From: Edaphobacter aggregans
Lineage (GTDB): Bacteria; Acidobacteriota; Terriglobia; Terriglobales; Acidobacteriaceae
Length of the DNA stretch: 32,000 nucleotides
Reading direction: 5' to 3'
Assembly (NCBI RefSeq): GCF_003945235.1
Contig: NZ_RSDW01000001.1
Span: 2,280,001-2,312,000 of the forward strand
Under the pieces are notes generated by a model that worked only from the letters and a program-made list of their open reading frames with translations, had not been told where the DNA came from and did no database searches. The position numbers and the translations under genes were made by a program. Of the stretch, positions 8,397 to 14,951 are shown in pieces (positions within the stretch are counted from its first letter, which is position 1; each line of letters starts with the position of its first letter).

Positions 8397-8411
8397 TGCC
8401 AATGACTCGAT

Positions 8412-8640
8412 TCCGATGAACTTACCGCGCCACCCTGCCTGATCCGTTTAGGCGAGGCGGGAGCAAATGCATTTACAATGATGAAGCTGGCCGGACATTC
8501 CAGCATGACAGTGAGCCAGCGTACGTGCATCGGACGCCGGAGTCTGTGGAGCGAGCTTTGGCCGGCTGGAGACGCTCAATCGCAAGGCTCTGGAACGGGC
8601 AAGTGGCGTAAACTCCCCACAAAATCCCCCACAGCGTGCT
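8412..8640 (+). pseudogene. tyrosine recombinase/integrase, C-terminal fragment with frameshifts
   Basis: Reading across three frames gives ...LTAPPCLIRLGEAGANAFTMMKLAGHSSMTVSQR / YVHRTPESVERA / FGRLETLNRKALERASG. This is the box-II region of tyrosine recombinases (LGHSS...T..Y.H, with the catalytic Tyr context). It is broken by 1-nt deletions near 8521 and 8556. The whole N-terminal part is missing, because the frame opens only at the ROK stop codon. Confidence 0.6.
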
Positions 8641-8664
8641 CTAAGAGCGTCGTGCGTCATGGAA

Positions 8665-8740
<76 letters not shown>

Positions 8741-8903
8741 CTAACCACCCTATAAATAAAAGCGATTCGTGATATCTGCTAGAACAGAGCAGCTCATTAA
8801 GCGATTTGACTCTGCTCTCGAGAGAGCACGGACTGCCGACTACGCTGGGGCTCTCCGGGAGTTTGAGGAACGAAACGGCCGCAATCTGCGGACGATACTC
8901 ACG

Positions 8904-8933
8904 TTGACAAATTCTTTGAAAAGAAGCTATTCT
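8904..8933 (+). promoter_or_regulatory. sigma70-like promoter candidate for the small peptide gene
   Basis: TTGACA (8904..8909), an 18-nt spacer, then TATTCT (8928..8933). It lies about 55 nt upstream of ATG 8988. Confidence 0.4.
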
Positions 8934-8987
8934 TGAGCGTTTTTCCAACGGGTTGCTTTCAATTTCCATAATCAACAAGGAGGAGAA

Positions 8988-9161
8988 ATGGCCCAAACTA
9001 TTATGACGGGGACGATCGACAAGAAACCAGTGCCTCCGGCAATGCAAACAAAAGTGCAGGACGCTCTCAAAGGTGCTCTGCAATCTGAACTGTCCATTGG
9101 TCCCACCCACCACATCGAATTCACGCACATCAACATCGTTTGGGACAAAGTTAAATCCTGA
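8988..9161 (+). CDS. 57-aa small protein, candidate RiPP precursor peptide (absent from the >=60-aa ORF track)
   Basis: ATG 8988 is preceded by AAGGAGGAG (8977..8985). Translation: MAQTIMTGTIDKKPVPPAMQTKVQDALKGALQSELSIGPTHHIEFTHINIVWDKVKS, with stop TGA 9159..9161. The only competing ORF (8697..9164, minus) runs antisense through the tRNA. The gene lies on the same strand as, and upstream of, a radical SAM/SPASM gene. Confidence 0.6.
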   Translation: MAQTIMTGTIDKKPVPPAMQTKVQDALKGALQSELSIGPTHHIEFTHINIVWDKVKS

Positions 9162-9183
9162 CATCCTCTATCCCTGTCAGGAT
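9155..9183 (+). other. stem-loop overlapping the peptide stop codon
   Basis: ATCCTGACA (9155..9163) pairs with TGTCAGGAT (9175..9183). It is a perfect 9-bp stem with an 11-nt loop and no following T-tract. Confidence 0.5.
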
Positions 9184-9436
9184 GCGTAATTCCCCCCTTT
9201 GAGCAGGTGTTGGTAACTATCACCAAGGGAGATTCATAGGCTTACCGACTGCCCAAGGCAACCTCTTCTTTTGAGATGGCTTACTTTGAAACCATCGATA
9301 AATGAAGATTTGCTTCAAAAAAGGCCTCAGGACAATACCCCGTTTTCCGGCGACCACCGTCGGTCGCAAGGCCGCCCTTTAAGGCAGTATCCATGGGCCA
9401 GGGGCATACTGACTCGAAAATCGGGTTCTAACTCCA

Positions 9437-9467
9437 ATCCATCCGCTCTCACAGGAAGCGGATGGAT
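9437..9467 (+). other. perfect 11-bp stem-loop in the peptide/rSAM spacer
   Basis: ATCCATCCGCT (9437..9447) pairs with AGCGGATGGAT (9457..9467), with a 9-nt loop. It lies about 107 nt upstream of the likely rSAM start. Confidence 0.5.
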
Positions 9468-9573
9468 CGGAGGCAGCTTAAGAACTCATGAGGTCCGCTT
9501 TCTAAACAAACTGTTTGATCTGTCTCACTACGCTCATCGAGAAACGACCAGGTTGCTAATGCAGGAGGGTTGC

Positions 9574-10800
9574 ATGGGCGAAATTTGGCAAAGTGGTCAA
9601 AAAAACTATATTAGCCAAGTCATCTTGAAGGTCGCGGCTCGCTGCAATCTGAACTGTTCCTATTGCTACGTCTTCAACATGGCTGATTCTTCCTGGAAGA
9701 GCCGGCCAGCGTTGATGTCAAATGAGGTGTTTGAAGCAGCACTCGCGCGCACTCTCGAGCAATGCCGTGCTACCGGTCAGGATCGAATCCTCTTAGCCTT
9801 CCACGGAGGTGAGCCGTGTCTGATTGGTCCCGACAGATTCGACGCTTGGTGTGCAAGGGCGCAAGCTGTGCTGGGTAAGGTCGTAAATCTACATCTGGTC
9901 ATGCAGACGAACGGGACGCTCCTGGATTCTCGCTGGATCGATCTACTCCGAAAATACGAAGTAAGCATCGGGATCAGCATGGACGGTCCCAAAGAGATCC
10001 ATGATGCCGTAAGGGTCGATCACCGGCGACAAGGTTCCTACGATCAGGTGGAGCGCGGATTAAGGCTCTTGCAAGAAGCAGACATTCCGTACGGTGTCGG
10101 ATGTGTGATCCCGCTGGGAGCTGATCCATTGGTTGTACACCGTCATTTCCTGCAGCTCGCCTGCAAACAAATCACTTACTTGATGCCTCACTTTACTCAC
10201 GACACTATTGCGCCCATCTGGCAACGCTACGGAGCCACACCCTGCGCGGATTTTCTCATCCCGATCTTCGACGATTGGTGGTTTGAGGGCACCATGGAAT
10301 TCCAAATCAATAATTTGAAAGATGTGGCACGGGTGATCATGGGCGGTCAGAGCCACTCTGAGGCGATTGGCAACGGTCCGCCGGGCTACGTATTTATCGA
10401 AGCAGATGGAGAGATGGAAGGGCTCGATAATCTTCGTGCCTGTGGCGAAGGACTTTCCCGAATCAAGCTGAACGTCCGCAATTCCAGTTTTTTCGATCTG
10501 TTACGAACCGAGACGATGCACGCCCAGGCTATCTTTGAAGGCATGCCACTCGCGCAAACCTGCCGTGACTGCAGCGAAGCAAAAACGTGCGCGGGCGGCC
10601 ATCTCGCACATCGTTTTTCCAGCGCTCGAGGCTTCGATAATCCAAGCGTCTGGTGCGCGGACCTGCTAAAACTCTTCTCCCACGTCCGAGCTCGGATGGG
10701 TGTGAGCCTGCAAGAAACCGATGAATTCCGGAGAACGCTGGCGATGCGAAATGCCATAAGTCTTGACGCTGCACCTCGGCTCTCTCCCTCTGCGGCCTGA
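9574..10800 (+). CDS. radical SAM/SPASM-domain peptide maturase-like protein (FxsB/XyeB cyclophane-forming clade by motif)
   Basis: The track ORF 9271..10800 most likely starts at ATG 9574, behind GGAGGG at 9564..9569 (ATG 9559 is an alternative). The upstream 101 codons are Arg/Ser-rich and look non-coding. The CX3CX2C motif CNLNCSYC sits in ILKVAARCNLNCSYCYVFNMADSSWKSRPALMS, followed by GGEP. The C-terminal Cys cluster is CRDCSEAKTCAGGHLAHRF...FDNPSVWCADL. Confidence 0.85.
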   Translation: MGEIWQSGQKNYISQVILKVAARCNLNCSYCYVFNMADSSWKSRPALMSNEVFEAALARTLEQCRATGQDRILLAFHGGEPCLIGPDRFDAWCARAQAVLGKVVNLHLVMQTNGTLLDSRWIDLLRKYEVSIGISMDGPKEIHDAVRVDHRRQGSYDQVERGLRLLQEADIPYGVGCVIPLGADPLVVHRHFLQLACKQITYLMPHFTHDTIAPIWQRYGATPCADFLIPIFDDWWFEGTMEFQINNLKDVARVIMGGQSHSEAIGNGPPGYVFIEADGEMEGLDNLRACGEGLSRIKLNVRNSSFFDLLRTETMHAQAIFEGMPLAQTCRDCSEAKTCAGGHLAHRFSSARGFDNPSVWCADLLKLFSHVRARMGVSLQETDEFRRTLAMRNAISLDAAPRLSPSAA

Positions 10801-10861
10801 AGAAAAATTCCACCCCGAACACTGCAAACAATTGCATTTTGATCCGTGATACGTTGACCTC

Positions 10862-11344
10862 ATGGATCTCAATCCGTACGCCAAATTCCTCGACGAACGA
10901 GACCCACTCCCGGTCATTACTTCGACCGCAGACCGTCTCCGCGTCCTTACCGAGCCCTTCTCCCCGGCCCAGGCCGACGCAGAGCCGGCCCCCGGTAAGT
11001 GGAGCGTCCGCGAGATCATCGCCCACCTCGCCGACTGCGAGCTCGTCTTCAGCTTCCGTCTCCGCCAGACCCTCAGCGAAGAGCATCCCATCATCCAGCC
11101 CTTCAATCAGGAGAACTGGGCCACGCGTTACGCCGCCTACGACCTCGCCTCTGCGCTCGCGCTCTTCACCGCTGCCCGCAACTGGAACCTGAAATTCCTC
11201 ACCACAGTCGACGAAGCCGACCGCCACCGCCCCACCACTCACCCCGAGCGCGGCACCATGACCCTCTGGACCATCGTCGAGACCATGGCCGGCCACGACA
11301 TCAATCACCTTCAGCAGCTCGAACGGATCACCGCAACCGCGTAG
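10862..11344 (+). CDS. DinB-family (DinB_2-like) protein
   Basis: 160-aa ORF. Typical features are ...WSVREIIAHLADCELVFSFRLRQ... and the C-terminal ...ETMAGHDINHLQQLERI, giving the His triad spacing of DinB/YfiT-like four-helix bundles. Confidence 0.75.
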   Translation: MDLNPYAKFLDERDPLPVITSTADRLRVLTEPFSPAQADAEPAPGKWSVREIIAHLADCELVFSFRLRQTLSEEHPIIQPFNQENWATRYAAYDLASALALFTAARNWNLKFLTTVDEADRHRPTTHPERGTMTLWTIVETMAGHDINHLQQLERITATA

Positions 11345-11376: not shown

Positions 11377-12006
11377 CTACAGCCCCAAAGCGTCATTCAC
11401 ATCGCGAACCAGATTCCGCAGATAACTCCGCTTATTCAGCAGCGCCACCATCGCATCTCTGACTCTCGCCTTTGCCGCCTCATCGCCGGCATCCACAGCA
11501 GCATCCCACGCGGTCCAAAGCCCTTCGAGCTCCGCCTGCGTCTCCACCATCTTCGCGTCGAAGGCGTCCTTGGTAGTCATCAGATCGCGCCGCAGCTCCG
11601 GCTCATCCTCGCCCATCTGCTTCGCGGCGCGCATCTCCTGAAGCTGCATGTTCAGCTCGAAGACCTCCTCCAGCAACTCTGGCGGAACCACCTGCTTCTT
11701 CTCAATCCCCGTAGCCCGAGCCGCATCGGTCGCGGCCTTCGACTGCTCCTCCAGCTCCACGCCTTCGAGCTTCAGCAGATACTGCGTCCGCAGAATCGGG
11801 TCCTTCAGCGTTCGATATGCGTCGTTCAACTCTGAACTAGCCGCCAGCGCAGCCTCCTGTTCGGCGGCGGGCTTCGAAGCGAACCGATCCGGATGCAACT
11901 TGCGCGACAAAGCATAAAACTGCTTCTCGAGCGCCGCTGCGTCAAGGTGTAAATGTTGAGGAAGTTGAAAAAGAGTGAAGTAGCTGCTCTGCGAATCGTG
12001 GCTCAT
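11377..12006 (-). CDS. hscB: Fe-S cluster co-chaperone HscB (J-domain)
   Basis: J-domain with LHPDRF (the HPD motif) in YFTLFQLPQHLHLDAAALEKQFYALSRKLHPDRF. The likely start is ATG 12006 (MSHDSQSSYF), 11 nt after the iscA stop. The track ORF extends to 12048. Confidence 0.85.
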   Translation of the reverse strand: MSHDSQSSYFTLFQLPQHLHLDAAALEKQFYALSRKLHPDRFASKPAAEQEAALAASSELNDAYRTLKDPILRTQYLLKLEGVELEEQSKAATDAARATGIEKKQVVPPELLEEVFELNMQLQEMRAAKQMGEDEPELRRDLMTTKDAFDAKMVETQAELEGLWTAWDAAVDAGDEAAKARVRDAMVALLNKRSYLRNLVRDVNDALGL

Positions 12007-12017
12007 CACTTTTAAGC

Positions 12018-12521
12018 TTACGCCGTAAAGCTCGACCCGCACCCACAACTCTTCGTCGAGTTCGGATTGATGAAATTGAACCCCTGACGCATCAGTGTCT
12101 CTTCAAAGTCCAGCACCATGCCATGCAGATAGATAAAACTCTTCGGGTCGACGAATATCCGAATCGGCGCGCCGTTAGTCGGATCGCCCGAAGTCTGAAT
12201 CCCCGCGCCAAACGTGTACACACGGTCCCGCTCGCGAGGCTGCGAATCAAAACGAATGTTGTAGCTAAGCCCCGAGCACCCACCACCCTGAATCCCAACG
12301 CGCAGCCCGCCCTGCTCCGGCGAAACACCCTCCTTCGCCATCGCCACGCGAATCCGCTTCAGCGCCTTCTCGGTAATCTGAATGCCCTTCTGGTTCGGTT
12401 CCTGCCCTTCGGCCGTCAGCACATTCATCCCAGCCAGCGGATTCTTTGGTTCAGACGAAGCAGCCTGCTTCCTGCTTGCCTCCATCTCCGCCGCGGATTG
12501 TAACGTCACCATCGCCATCAT
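12018..12521 (-). CDS. iscA: IscA/HesB-family iron-sulfur cluster insertion protein with N-terminal extension
   Basis: GLRVGIQGGGCSGLSYNIRFD ... NPNSTKSCGCGSSF is the C-x(n)-CGCG signature. ATG 12521 has GAAGGTG upstream, and the internal ATG 12428 is an alternative start. Confidence 0.85.
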   Translation of the reverse strand: MMAMVTLQSAAEMEASRKQAASSEPKNPLAGMNVLTAEGQEPNQKGIQITEKALKRIRVAMAKEGVSPEQGGLRVGIQGGGCSGLSYNIRFDSQPRERDRVYTFGAGIQTSGDPTNGAPIRIFVDPKSFIYLHGMVLDFEETLMRQGFNFINPNSTKSCGCGSSFTA

Positions 12522-12633
12522 TCACACCTTCAACAAAACGACCACGGATCCCCACAGATCCGCGCGGACTAGTACGCCTGTACCTAAATCCCCGCTCATC
12601 CGCACTCATCCGCGGTCGTCTACTGATCTAGCC

Positions 12634-13056
12634 TTAGTGAGCCGCAGCAACCTCAGCGTTCGCCGTCTCACCAACATTGTTCTTCTTCTTCCAGTCGCTG
12701 ATCGCCGCGTGGATGGCATCCTCAGCCAGCACCGAGCAGTGAATCTTCACCGGAGGAAGCGCAAGCTCCTTCACGATGTCCGTGTTCTTGATCGACAGAG
12801 CCTCGGCCACCGTCTTACCCTTCACCCACTCCGTAGCGAGCGAAGACGAAGCAATCGCCGAACCGCAGCCGAAGGTCTTGAACTTGGCATCTTCGATCAC
12901 CTGCGTCTCGGGGTTCACCTTGATCTGCAGCCGCATCACGTCGCCGCACTCTGGCGCCCCTACAAGCCCGGTGCCAACCTCGTCCGAAGACTTATCCATC
13001 TGTCCAACGTTCCGGGGATTGTTGTAGTGGTCAATTACCTTATCGCTATATGCCAT
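12634..13056 (-). CDS. iscU: Fe-S cluster assembly scaffold IscU
   Basis: MAYSDKVIDHYNNPRNVGQMD...GAPECGDVMRLQIKV...FKTFGCGSAIASSS...LPPVKIHCSVLAEDA are the canonical IscU motifs. Confidence 0.95.
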   Translation of the reverse strand: MAYSDKVIDHYNNPRNVGQMDKSSDEVGTGLVGAPECGDVMRLQIKVNPETQVIEDAKFKTFGCGSAIASSSLATEWVKGKTVAEALSIKNTDIVKELALPPVKIHCSVLAEDAIHAAISDWKKKNNVGETANAEVAAAH

Positions 13057-13134
13057 TTTGTGTCCCTCGTCTCTTACTTAGATGATATCTCTGGAAATAA
13101 GGTCCAATCGAACCCTAATTCCCTACCCGCTGCC

Positions 13135-14439
13135 TTAGTGCGCTGCCCATTCAATCTTCGAGAGGTCGATCCCTTCCTTCACCATCTCATACAGCGGGCT
13201 CAACTCACGCAGCTTCTGCACCACATCAATCAACTTGTCTGAAACATAATCCACTTCCGCCTTCGTGTTGAACCGACCAAGGCCAAACCGAATCGAGCTA
13301 TGGGCTACATCGTCGCCCAGGCCCAAAGCCTTCAATACATACGATGGTTCAAGAGTCGCCGAAGTGCAGGCCGAGCCTGAAGAAACCGCGATGTCGTTGA
13401 TACCCATCAGCAGGCTCTCGCCCTCGACATACACAAAGCTCATGTTCAGATTGCCCGGCAGATGGTGCTCCATGTTGCCGTTGACGTGCACGTAATCCAG
13501 AGCCTTCTCAAACTTTGCGCGCAGATAATCACGAAGCTCCGTCTCACGCTTCGCCTCGGTCGCCATCTCTTCGCCGCAGATCTCGCAGGCTTTGCCCAGT
13601 CCAACGATGCCGGGAACGTTCAGCGTGCCCGACCGCATCCCGCGCTCATGACCGCCGCCGTTGATCTGCTCAGAGATCTGCACACGCGGATTGCGCCGGC
13701 GCACATACAACGCGCCCACACCCTTCGGCCCATAGATCTTGTGGCCACTCAGGCTCAGTACATCGATGTTGTCCTTCTGGACATCCACCGGAACCTTGCC
13801 TACAGCCTGCACTCCATCGGTGTGGAACAGGATGCCCTTCTCGTGACACAGCTTGCCAATCTCGGCAACCGGCTGGATCACTCCAATCTCGTTATTCGCG
13901 TACATGATCGATACAAGAATCGTCTTGTCGTCAATCGCCCGCTTCAAATCTTCGATGTCGATCAACCCGTCGGCCTGCACCGGCAGATACGTCACGCGGT
14001 AGCCCTGCTTCTCAAGCTTCTTGCACGTATCGAGCACAGCCTTGTGCTCCGTCACCTGCGTGATGATGTGGTTGCCGCGTTCGCGGTACATCTCGGCGAT
14101 GCCCTTCAAAGCCAGATTGTTCGACTCCGTCGCACCCGACGTGAAGATGATCTCCTTGGCCGTCGCACCGATCAGCTTCGCCACCTGCTCGCGCGCGTTT
14201 TCCACCGCCTTCTCGGCCTCCCAGCCGAACGAGTGATTGCGGCTCGCCGCATTCCCAAAGGTCGACGTGAAATACGGCATCATTGCTTCAAGAACCCGCG
14301 GATCCAGCGGCGTCGTCGCATGGTTATCCATGTAGATCGGCAGGTGCACGCCCTCTGGCAGAGGCGTTGAAGACTCAGTCACAATGATTCCCGTTCCGTT
14401 TCCGTTGCTGCTCATATCGTTCCCCGCTCCAAATTCCAA
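13135..14439 (-). CDS. iscS: cysteine desulfurase IscS
   Basis: Class V aminotransferase motifs are present: [31 protein letters not shown] (PLP lysine) and SSGSACTS (catalytic Cys loop). The start is ATG 14439 or ATG 14415. Confidence 0.95.
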
Positions 14440-14498
14440 TCTCTGTTGCTGCTCAATATCTTTTGAACATTATTAACGGCTGGCAGCCGCGTACAAGT

Positions 14499-14951
14499 CT
14501 AAAGCGCGATGCTTACTAAACCACCACCCACCGCAACATGCTCCACGTCCGCAGCTTCAACCAGGTCTGCTATATAGATGCCGCTCAACAGGTCTTTGAT
14601 GCTGTCATTGACTTTGCGGAGTGGTTCTTTGATAGTGCAGGTGCTCGTCAGATCGCATGCTCCATGAATCGTGATACAGCTGGTGATAAACAACGGCCCG
14701 TCGATCGCCCGGATCACCTCAAACGCAGAGATCTCCGAAGCCGATTTAGCCAGAGCATATCCACCATTCGTCCCCGCATGTGAGACCAGCAAACCAGCCT
14801 TGGCTAGTGTCTGCAGGATCTTCGCCAACAGCTGGGGAGGAATGTGATATGCCTCGGCGATGTCCTTAGCGCTATGCGCACCATGAGTCTGCTCGGCCAA
14901 ATACTTCAAAGCCATCAGACCGTAGTCCGCTTTTTTTGTCAGACGCAGCAT
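14499..14951 (-). CDS. iscR: Rrf2-family transcriptional regulator IscR
   Basis: MLRLTKKADYGLMALKYLA... is an Rrf2 wHTH. The three-Cys cluster is SCITIHGACDLTSTC. It is the first gene of the isc operon. Confidence 0.9.
   Translation of the reverse strand: MLRLTKKADYGLMALKYLAEQTHGAHSAKDIAEAYHIPPQLLAKILQTLAKAGLLVSHAGTNGGYALAKSASEISAFEVIRAIDGPLFITSCITIHGACDLTSTCTIKEPLRKVNDSIKDLLSGIYIADLVEAADVEHVAVGGGLVSIAL

Follow-up and report, generated by a model that had tools for sequence, protein, structure and literature searches.

The locus considered here raises a simple question: does a 57-codon open reading frame (ORF) upstream of a radical S-adenosylmethionine (SAM) gene in the soil bacterium Edaphobacter aggregans (Acidobacteriota, Terriglobia) encode the substrate of that enzyme, and if so, what kind of peptide would the two genes make? 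Both genes lie on the forward strand of a 32,000-nucleotide (nt) stretch of DNA, called the window below, and statements about the neighborhood cover these 32 kb. A preliminary description, made from the letters alone, had proposed a minimal two-gene locus for a new cyclophane-type RiPP (a peptide synthesized by ribosomes and modified post-translationally), in which an unannotated peptide is paired with an FxsB/XyeB-like enzyme. The word "unannotated" has to be withdrawn, since the public record lists the peptide as "hypothetical protein EDE15_1940" (RSL16426.1, WP_185827086.1), though without a function. The enzyme is listed as "radical SAM protein" (RSL16427.1), and neither gene carries a RiPP annotation. 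Our analysis favors, with a probability of roughly 70%, a RiPP locus of two genes that would belong to the triceptide (three-residue cyclophane) type and in which His would serve as the aromatic residue. The pair is thus most likely an uncharacterized member of the triceptide class, and not a new kind of system. Coordinates of the features are collected in Table 1.

The 57-codon ORF is conserved upstream of the enzyme gene

We collected 77 loci with relatives of the enzyme, one genome per species; individual loci are given as L numbers. When the peptide was used as a tblastn query, matches were obtained in 17 of the 77 loci, all on the same strand and directly 5' of an orthologous enzyme (59 to 84% enzyme identity). 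The orthologues without a tblastn match were those of L013 and L015 (61 to 62% identity), whose cores have diverged, and L039, which is truncated at its 5' end. Six more enzymes, found on metagenome contigs, were each preceded by a called gene of 54 to 69 residues with the same core. The neighborhood check proposed beforehand, namely whether a homologous small ORF precedes orthologous enzymes, therefore came out in favor of the pairing: a peptide homologue was located directly upstream and on the same strand in 23 of 23 orthologous loci examined (58 to 84% identity). When 1.84 billion cluster representatives were searched with a profile, just 19 relatives of the precursor were found, nearly all of them 53 to 65 residues long. 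By this measure, the putative precursor family is small and coherent. A hidden Markov model of the precursor found a single copy, and no second precursor, in the window.

We find it scarcely credible that the ORF is open by chance and no gene at all. It is short, and the peptide matched no Pfam or NCBIfam family, both of which would fit such a reading. However, conservation at the protein level, invariant residues included, extends over 36 or more sequences, and substitutions are biased to the third codon position: nucleotide differences from the orthologues in L004 and L017 numbered 8/6/25 and 9/6/23 at codon positions 1/2/3 of the forward frame. The sole long ORF competing with the peptide gene is, as the preliminary description had recognized, an antisense frame (8697..9164, minus strand) that crosses tRNA-Met (8665..8740). 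Because translation of this frame would load the excess of differences onto its own first position, we regard it as a by-product. The ORF encodes exactly the 57 residues first read from it and is preceded by a strong Shine-Dalgarno sequence at the position originally assigned, and GenBank and RefSeq annotate the gene independently. Taken on its pattern of conservation, the ORF is a genuine conserved gene with the appearance of being translated.

The core carries two conserved His triplets

An alignment of 18 genomic precursors revealed a conserved N-terminus (MA...G..D.KP......KVQxALKxxLxxEL), with a variable linker and then a short core behind it. Two H-x-[S/E/D/N] triplets were the sole constant feature of the core across these 18 precursors and 18 library representatives. 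In the first, H42 was invariant among relatives, position 43 was occupied by I, F, A, Y, G, V, or W, and position 44 by S, E, D, or N (T in the distant L013). In the second, H47 was likewise invariant, position 48 was free, and position 49 was S, N, or D (E in L013). Taken over both triplets, the free middle residue included I, F, A, Y, G, L, V, and W. In the diverged cores, the triplets read HGT/HGE in L013 and HDA/HAN in L015. The His-to-His spacing varied from 3 to 5; in divergent representatives, the Thr before H47 is gone and the spacing of 5 shrinks to 4 or 3, with two H-x-[S/N/...] triplets persisting in short-spacing cores such as HGSVHGS, HYSGHLN, and HVSHAS. A free middle residue combined with variable spacing is what would be expected of independent aromatic-X-X ring units.

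Triceptide motifs are defined as aromatic-X-X, with the ring linked to the C-beta of the third residue (PMC11499958). The pattern of a fixed first, a free second, and a restricted third residue in the core fits this rule. Two other aromatic residues, Phe45 and Trp52, are replaced in relatives by I, V, L, W, C, or S and by F, Y, V, I, or S, respectively; as they are not conserved as aromatics, they are weaker ring candidates. The absence of cysteine from the peptide excludes thioether chemistry. Its C-terminus reads ...IVWDKVKS and F-x-S is absent, so that it has no FxSxx-COOH end. The precursor had been described as lacking an FxSxx end and as unlike any known class. Its sequence family is new, but the His-X-X triplets correspond to the published triceptide rule. 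Judged by its core, the putative precursor is a new sequence family inside a known class.

The enzyme resembles cyclophane-forming maturases

Among Pfam models, the enzyme matched the radical SAM core alone (PF04055, 63 bits). The three best NCBIfam profiles were FxsB (TIGR04269; 304.3 bits against a cut-off of 370, with 362 of 363 model positions aligned), YhhB (NF041707; 297.5 bits against 445, full length), and XyeB (TIGR04496; 175.3 bits against 450). These were followed by the anaerobic sulfatase maturase profile (TIGR03942; 164.6 bits against 349, full length), by DynA (133 bits against 450), and by weaker matches to DarW (121 bits) and DarE (79 bits). The nearest solved structure was the radical SAM domain of ChlB, a triceptide synthase (9gm3; E 4.7e-51, residues 16 to 379), with the sulfatase maturase 4k37 next (E 1e-27). 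On these comparisons, the enzyme is clearly of the cyclophane-forming kind and outside any calibrated family; it is FxsB-like, not an FxsB member. The original placement in an FxsB/XyeB-like clade is thus borne out by the ranking, in which YhhB comes second, but not by the curated cut-offs, all of which exceed the scores.

Could the enzyme act elsewhere, as a relative of the anaerobic sulfatase maturases or as another protein modifier, next to an unrelated conserved small protein or regulator? The full-length match to the sulfatase maturase profile, the structural match to 4k37, and the 412 nt that separate the two genes in this genome are compatible with this idea. Yet 165 bits is far under the cut-off of 349 and about half the score of 304 obtained with FxsB. 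There is no sulfatase gene in the neighborhood, and the peptide has no Cys/Ser-x-Pro-x-Arg site. Moreover, the two genes are adjacent in 23 of 23 loci in which all other neighbors differ, with a gap that is mostly about 100 to 130 nt. We therefore consider it very unlikely that the small gene and the enzyme are functionally unconnected, and we proceed with the peptide as the probable substrate.

The two cysteine motifs pointed out initially were found where expected. CNLNCSYC supplies C24, C28, and C31, which were invariant in 65 related enzymes aligned, and the C-terminal region CRDCSEAKTCAGGH...WCADL supplies C330, C333, C339, and C361, which were near-invariant (C361 in 63 of 65); C290 was conserved too. 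Where the canonical CX2CX5CX3C motif has its fourth Cys, this enzyme has His343 and most relatives have Tyr, and the seven-cysteine set for two auxiliary clusters was absent from the 65-enzyme alignment. Aligned to 4k37, the four C-terminal cysteines matched cysteines of that structure at the same positions; three further cysteines of 4k37, which we take to be the ligands of its first auxiliary cluster, had no counterpart in the aligned enzyme. The conserved cysteines would suffice for one auxiliary cluster, and one is the simplest reading. The enzyme, at 408 residues, contains no extra domain.

A proposed route to two His-based rings

The steps that follow are modeled on the characterized enzymes HaaB, YhhB, HtkB, and MicB. 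The enzyme would dock on the conserved leader segment KVQDALKGALQSEL and cleave SAM reductively at the C24/C28/C31 cluster. The 5'-deoxyadenosyl radical would then take a hydrogen from the last residue of either triplet, at the C-beta of Glu44 or Asn49, and the carbon radical would add to the imidazole of His42 or His47, at C2 in the known cases. A proton and an electron would be lost, probably via the single C330/C333/C339/C361 auxiliary cluster, with aromaticity thereby restored. With two small rings closed, at H42-I-E44 and H47-I-N49, the peptide would be 4 Da lighter. W52-D-K54 might form a further ring, but this triplet is not conserved. Any removal of the leader and any export would have to rely on unlinked genes.

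The same enzyme and substrate might instead be joined in a chemistry other than a His-C2 to C-beta bond, which we judge unlikely but serious. DarE and DynA make C-O and C-N links. The options would include a dynobactin-like His N-to-C bond, a darobactin-like ether, a Glu C-gamma link, rings on Phe45 or Trp52, and a ring-free change such as epimerization. In favor of such options are the additional matches of the enzyme to DynA, DarW, and DarE, its position in no calibrated family, and the presence of Phe45 and Trp52 in the core; in addition, WprB forms a Trp-C5 to Arg-C-gamma link (PMC11851443). On the other hand, the FxsB and YhhB scores are more than twice those of DynA or DarW, and the conserved positions are both His residues and the residue two after each, whereas Phe45 and Trp52 are replaced in relatives. 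This pattern of conservation argues for His-based triceptide rings as the more probable product.

Several points weigh against our interpretation. The cross-link and its position are predicted by analogy with characterized enzymes, and Glu at the third ring position is without precedent among the characterized motifs compared. A different type of bond is conceivable, given the C-O and C-N chemistry of the related DarE and DynA. No named cyclophane family has a curated cut-off that the enzyme reaches, and its designation as a SPASM enzyme holds only in part: the generic SPASM model TIGR04085 gave 15.2 bits against a cut-off of 27, over model positions 30 to 86 only (its second half), and PF13186 gave no match even at E 10. 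Within the alignment, no enzyme position separated loci with Ser as the third triplet residue from those with an acid or amide. No protease, transporter, or second maturase was found in cis among the flanking genes of the 32-kb window, as the preliminary description had stated. Finally, the length of the spacer (412 nt) makes co-transcription of the two genes uncertain.

Sister loci and the wider enzyme clade

The description of the locus as a minimal two-gene system is accurate for this genome region, but most sister loci contain a third gene and some also a B12-binding radical SAM gene. The third conserved gene, which encodes about 350 residues, was present 3' of the enzyme gene in 14 loci, often coupled to the enzyme stop codon, and is absent from the window; in L013 and L018, a copy lies about 2 kb downstream. 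Its product contains the motifs GIPxCC and FFPCSFxC but no Pfam or NCBIfam family, and every homologue is called "hypothetical". An AlphaFold model of the protein was confident (predicted local distance difference test score, 90), and no Protein Data Bank entry matched it below E 0.068. Of the loci with both a third gene and a recognizable precursor, 14 of 15 had Ser/Ser at the ring-closing positions (the exception being L013, with Thr/Glu), and all 10 loci without the third gene, the window included, had Glu, Asp, or Asn there, a correlation that is confounded by phylogeny. Between the enzyme gene and the third gene, the more distant loci have a gene for a B12-binding radical SAM protein of about 640 residues (L082, 4228..6132; L083, 4288..6219), which suggests that these loci are an extended, four-gene version of the pathway.

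These observations can be joined into a more far-reaching conjecture, which we regard as doubtful. The Glu/Asn variant in the window, lacking the third gene, would form undescribed rings (His-to-Glu, possibly at C-gamma), and the full-length bicyclic peptide, rich in His and left uncleaved, would have an intracellular role such as metal binding, instead of being an exported antibiotic-like compound. The sister loci's third gene, without a match to any solved fold and near-perfectly linked to Ser at the ring-closing positions, would represent a new class of tailoring enzyme that is dispensed with here.

Longer small ORFs stand ahead of enzymes with 40 to 55% identity in Bradyrhizobium, Paraburkholderia, Sphingobium, Actinomycetota, and others. 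The leader pattern K-V-x-x-A-L-K-x-x-L-x-x-E-L recurs in these ORFs, as in KKVDLALKSVVDSEI and RVNEALKASLATEL, and is followed by two to four F-S-[R/K/N/D/Q] repeats. The small ORFs are adjacent to the enzyme gene in L030 and L025 and about 1.1 to 1.3 kb upstream in L028, L050, L037, and L041. Sharing the leader, they resemble precursors of Phe-type triceptides. Because the same leader stands before unrelated cores, the motif appears to be a shared recognition element of the enzyme clade; we infer this role from sequence comparison, and the core appears to have been switched between Phe and His. Still more distant small ORFs, in L063 (3687..3953) and L068 (3582..3959), contain the repeat MGYWKMKYWKMKYWKMG and may form a different, Trp/Tyr-rich precursor type.

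Organization and surroundings of the locus

Table 1. Positions of features in the window and in related loci (window numbering unless an L number is given)
Feature	Positions	Strand	Remarks
Promoter-like pair TTGACA-N18-TATTCT	8904..8933	+	5' of peptide gene; 10 of 12 positions match
Shine-Dalgarno, peptide gene	8977..8985	+	AAGGAGGAG, read from sequence; 2 nt before ATG 8988
Putative precursor peptide gene	8988..9161	+	57 residues; EDE15_1940
Leader region	8988..9107	+	Residues 1 to 40, with conserved DKKP...KVQDALKxALQSEL; from alignments, leader/core boundary inferred
Core motif 1	9111..9119	+	His42-Ile43-Glu44; proposed first three-residue ring
Core motif 2	9126..9134	+	His47-Ile48-Asn49; proposed second three-residue ring
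Stem-loop	9155..9183	+	9 bp, AUCCUGACA...UGUCAGGAU; includes peptide stop codon
Non-coding spacer, peptide to enzyme gene	9162..9573	+	412 nt
Shine-Dalgarno, enzyme gene	9564..9569	+	GGAGGG, read from sequence; 4 nt before ATG 9574
Putative radical SAM peptide maturase gene	9574..10800	+	408 residues; FxsB/YhhB-like; EDE15_1941
CX3CX2C (C24, C28, C31)	9643..9666	+	Predicted radical SAM [4Fe-4S] ligands; inside PF04055 match
C330-X2-C333-X5-C339 ... C361	10561..10656	+	Predicted ligands of one auxiliary cluster
Third gene, directly after enzyme gene	L003 5215..6276; L005, L006, L007, L009, L010, L011, L012, L014, L049, L079		
Third gene, about 2 kb downstream	L013, L016, L018, L082, L083		
Phe-type small ORFs	L028 2335..2715; L050 2364..2711; L037 349..699; L041 2575..2883; L030 3610..3906; L025 1773..2021	same strand	

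The enzyme start at ATG 9574, behind GGAGGG, was confirmed by the 408-residue GenBank protein (100% identity, 100% coverage). The promoter-like pair noted 5' of the peptide gene is present, but a scan of the region found 2 such sites where 1.6 were expected in shuffled sequences, so that the pair carries no weight on its own; a promoter at this position is plausible.

The spacer between the two genes is unusually long compared with the roughly 100 to 130 nt of most sister loci. Its sequence identity was 76% with the L001 spacer and about 60% with the others, a shallow degree of conservation, and its fold z-score was -2.5. A permissive Rfam scan of 8400..11000 returned the tRNA only, with no match in the spacer. 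A hidden gene was considered and rejected: tblastx against four long-spacer relatives gave short fragments with stops in all frames, and no ORF in the spacer is conserved with L001. A repeat or mobile element was dismissed as well, as no further copies were found in the window or the loci. Both minimum-free-energy and centroid structures contain a stem-loop at the end of the peptide gene; no U-tract follows it, it was not picked up by a terminator scan, and any part it might play in transcript stability or attenuation is conjecture. A second spacer hairpin lies near 9437..9470 (CCATCCGCT...AGCGGATGG) and is present in L001 too.

The cassette is flanked by genes for a ROK regulator, tRNA-Met, and a DinB-family protein and by the isc operon, and no HExxH partner is nearby. 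Synteny with relatives is absent, the peptide and enzyme genes being the only ones common to all loci. The G+C content is about 0.50 over 8600..10400 compared with 0.58 to 0.63 in the flanks. The window cassette follows tRNA-Met, that of L001 lies directly after two tRNA-Glu genes, and that of L009 is about 1.2 kb downstream of tRNA-Thr. Immediately 5' of tRNA-Met, at 8397..8664, we observed a decayed tyrosine-recombinase C-terminus (…MKLAGHSSMTVSQR / YVHRTPESVERA / FGRLETL…); this integrase remnant, spread over three reading frames, is a pseudogene. With its low G+C content, tRNA-Met, a decayed integrase, and relatives in unrelated contexts, the cassette behaves as a small mobile unit, which suggests a small acquired islet that has moved horizontally. 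Between the tRNA and the peptide gene, a 55-codon ORF (8769..8936, plus strand; MISARTEQLIKRFDSALERARTADYAGALREFEERNGRNL...) looks protein-like and may be another islet remnant.

The DinB gene (10862..11344) and the isc operon were considered as parts of the system and rejected, neither being conserved beside any orthologous cassette. The operon itself is a complete Fe-S assembly operon on the minus strand (11377..14951), 0.6 kb downstream of the radical SAM gene, and encodes an Rrf2/IscR-type regulator, IscS, IscU, an IscA-like protein, and a DnaJ-domain HscB-like protein. Relatives do not keep this arrangement, which is therefore probably coincidental.

Significance and comparison with known systems

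The proposal of a candidate new cyclophane RiPP locus stands insofar as precursor and maturase form a conserved pair, but the pair would belong to the known triceptide class. That class has been mapped intensively since 2020, while Acidobacteria, which are abundant in soil, are to our knowledge almost unexplored for peptide natural products. A literature search found no publication joining "triceptide" with Acidobacteria, published enzyme similarity networks lying outside its coverage. Being small, with two genes, and coming from a cultured type species, the locus lends itself to easy and cheap experimental testing. If our interpretation is correct, His-based cyclophane chemistry would extend to acidic and amide residues, and the stand-alone enzyme, apparently with a single auxiliary cluster, would provide a mechanistic comparison for ChlB. 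The leader motif, common to Acidobacteriota, Proteobacteria, and Actinobacteria, could be used for genome mining.

Among characterized systems, FxsB/MscB (TIGR04269) is the best-scoring profile, and its N- and C-terminal signatures are present in the E. aggregans enzyme. Fxs systems have an HExxH-domain partner, fused or adjacent, and FxSxx-COOH precursors; the present locus has neither, and 304 bits falls short of the cut-off of 370. The anaerobic sulfatase maturase anSME (4k37; TIGR03942) shares the architecture of a radical SAM domain with a C-terminal cluster, and its four second-cluster cysteines align, but it acts on a sulfatase, in place of the dedicated small peptide proposed here, and its profile gave 165 bits against a cut-off of 349. 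ChlB (9gm3, 9gmc) has the same C-terminal CX2CX5C...C set, and the first-cluster cysteines found in the sulfatase maturase are missing from it too; it differs in being fused to an alpha-ketoglutarate/HExxH hydroxylase domain and in acting on Tyr-Asp-Arg (PMC11499958), whereas the E. aggregans enzyme is stand-alone.

MicA/MicB (minviopeptin), set alongside here by its published description, has a triceptide synthase that forms a ring on His-Ala-Ser, to which a -2 Da cross-link was localized (PMC12912966); this is a His-x-Ser motif as in most sister loci. However, MicB acts on three motifs (YSK, HAS, and FTK), and its cluster includes an ADP-ribosyltransferase, nothing similar to which is found at the Edaphobacter locus. 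The His-type triceptide systems HaaA/HaaB, YhhA/YhhB, and HtkA/HtkB (Sugiyama et al. 2022, cited in PMC11002830; Phan and Morinaka 2024, PMC11499958) differ in that the third residue is Ala, Arg, or Lys, compared with Glu/Asn here and Ser/Asp in relatives. The precursor family described here is unrelated to theirs in sequence and mostly from Acidobacteriota, and the locus has no YhhC-type hydroxylase or HtkC-type partner. What the E. aggregans pair has in common with all three is a small precursor beside a radical SAM maturase and a His that comes first in a three-residue motif, and two or more His-X-X motifs per precursor have also been described for the HtkB cluster. His-C2 to C-beta rings have been demonstrated in these systems on HAA (HaaB), HNR (YhhB), and HTK (HtkB) (PMC11499958, PMC11002830), and they provide a precedent for the rings that we propose on H42-I-E44 and H47-I-N49.

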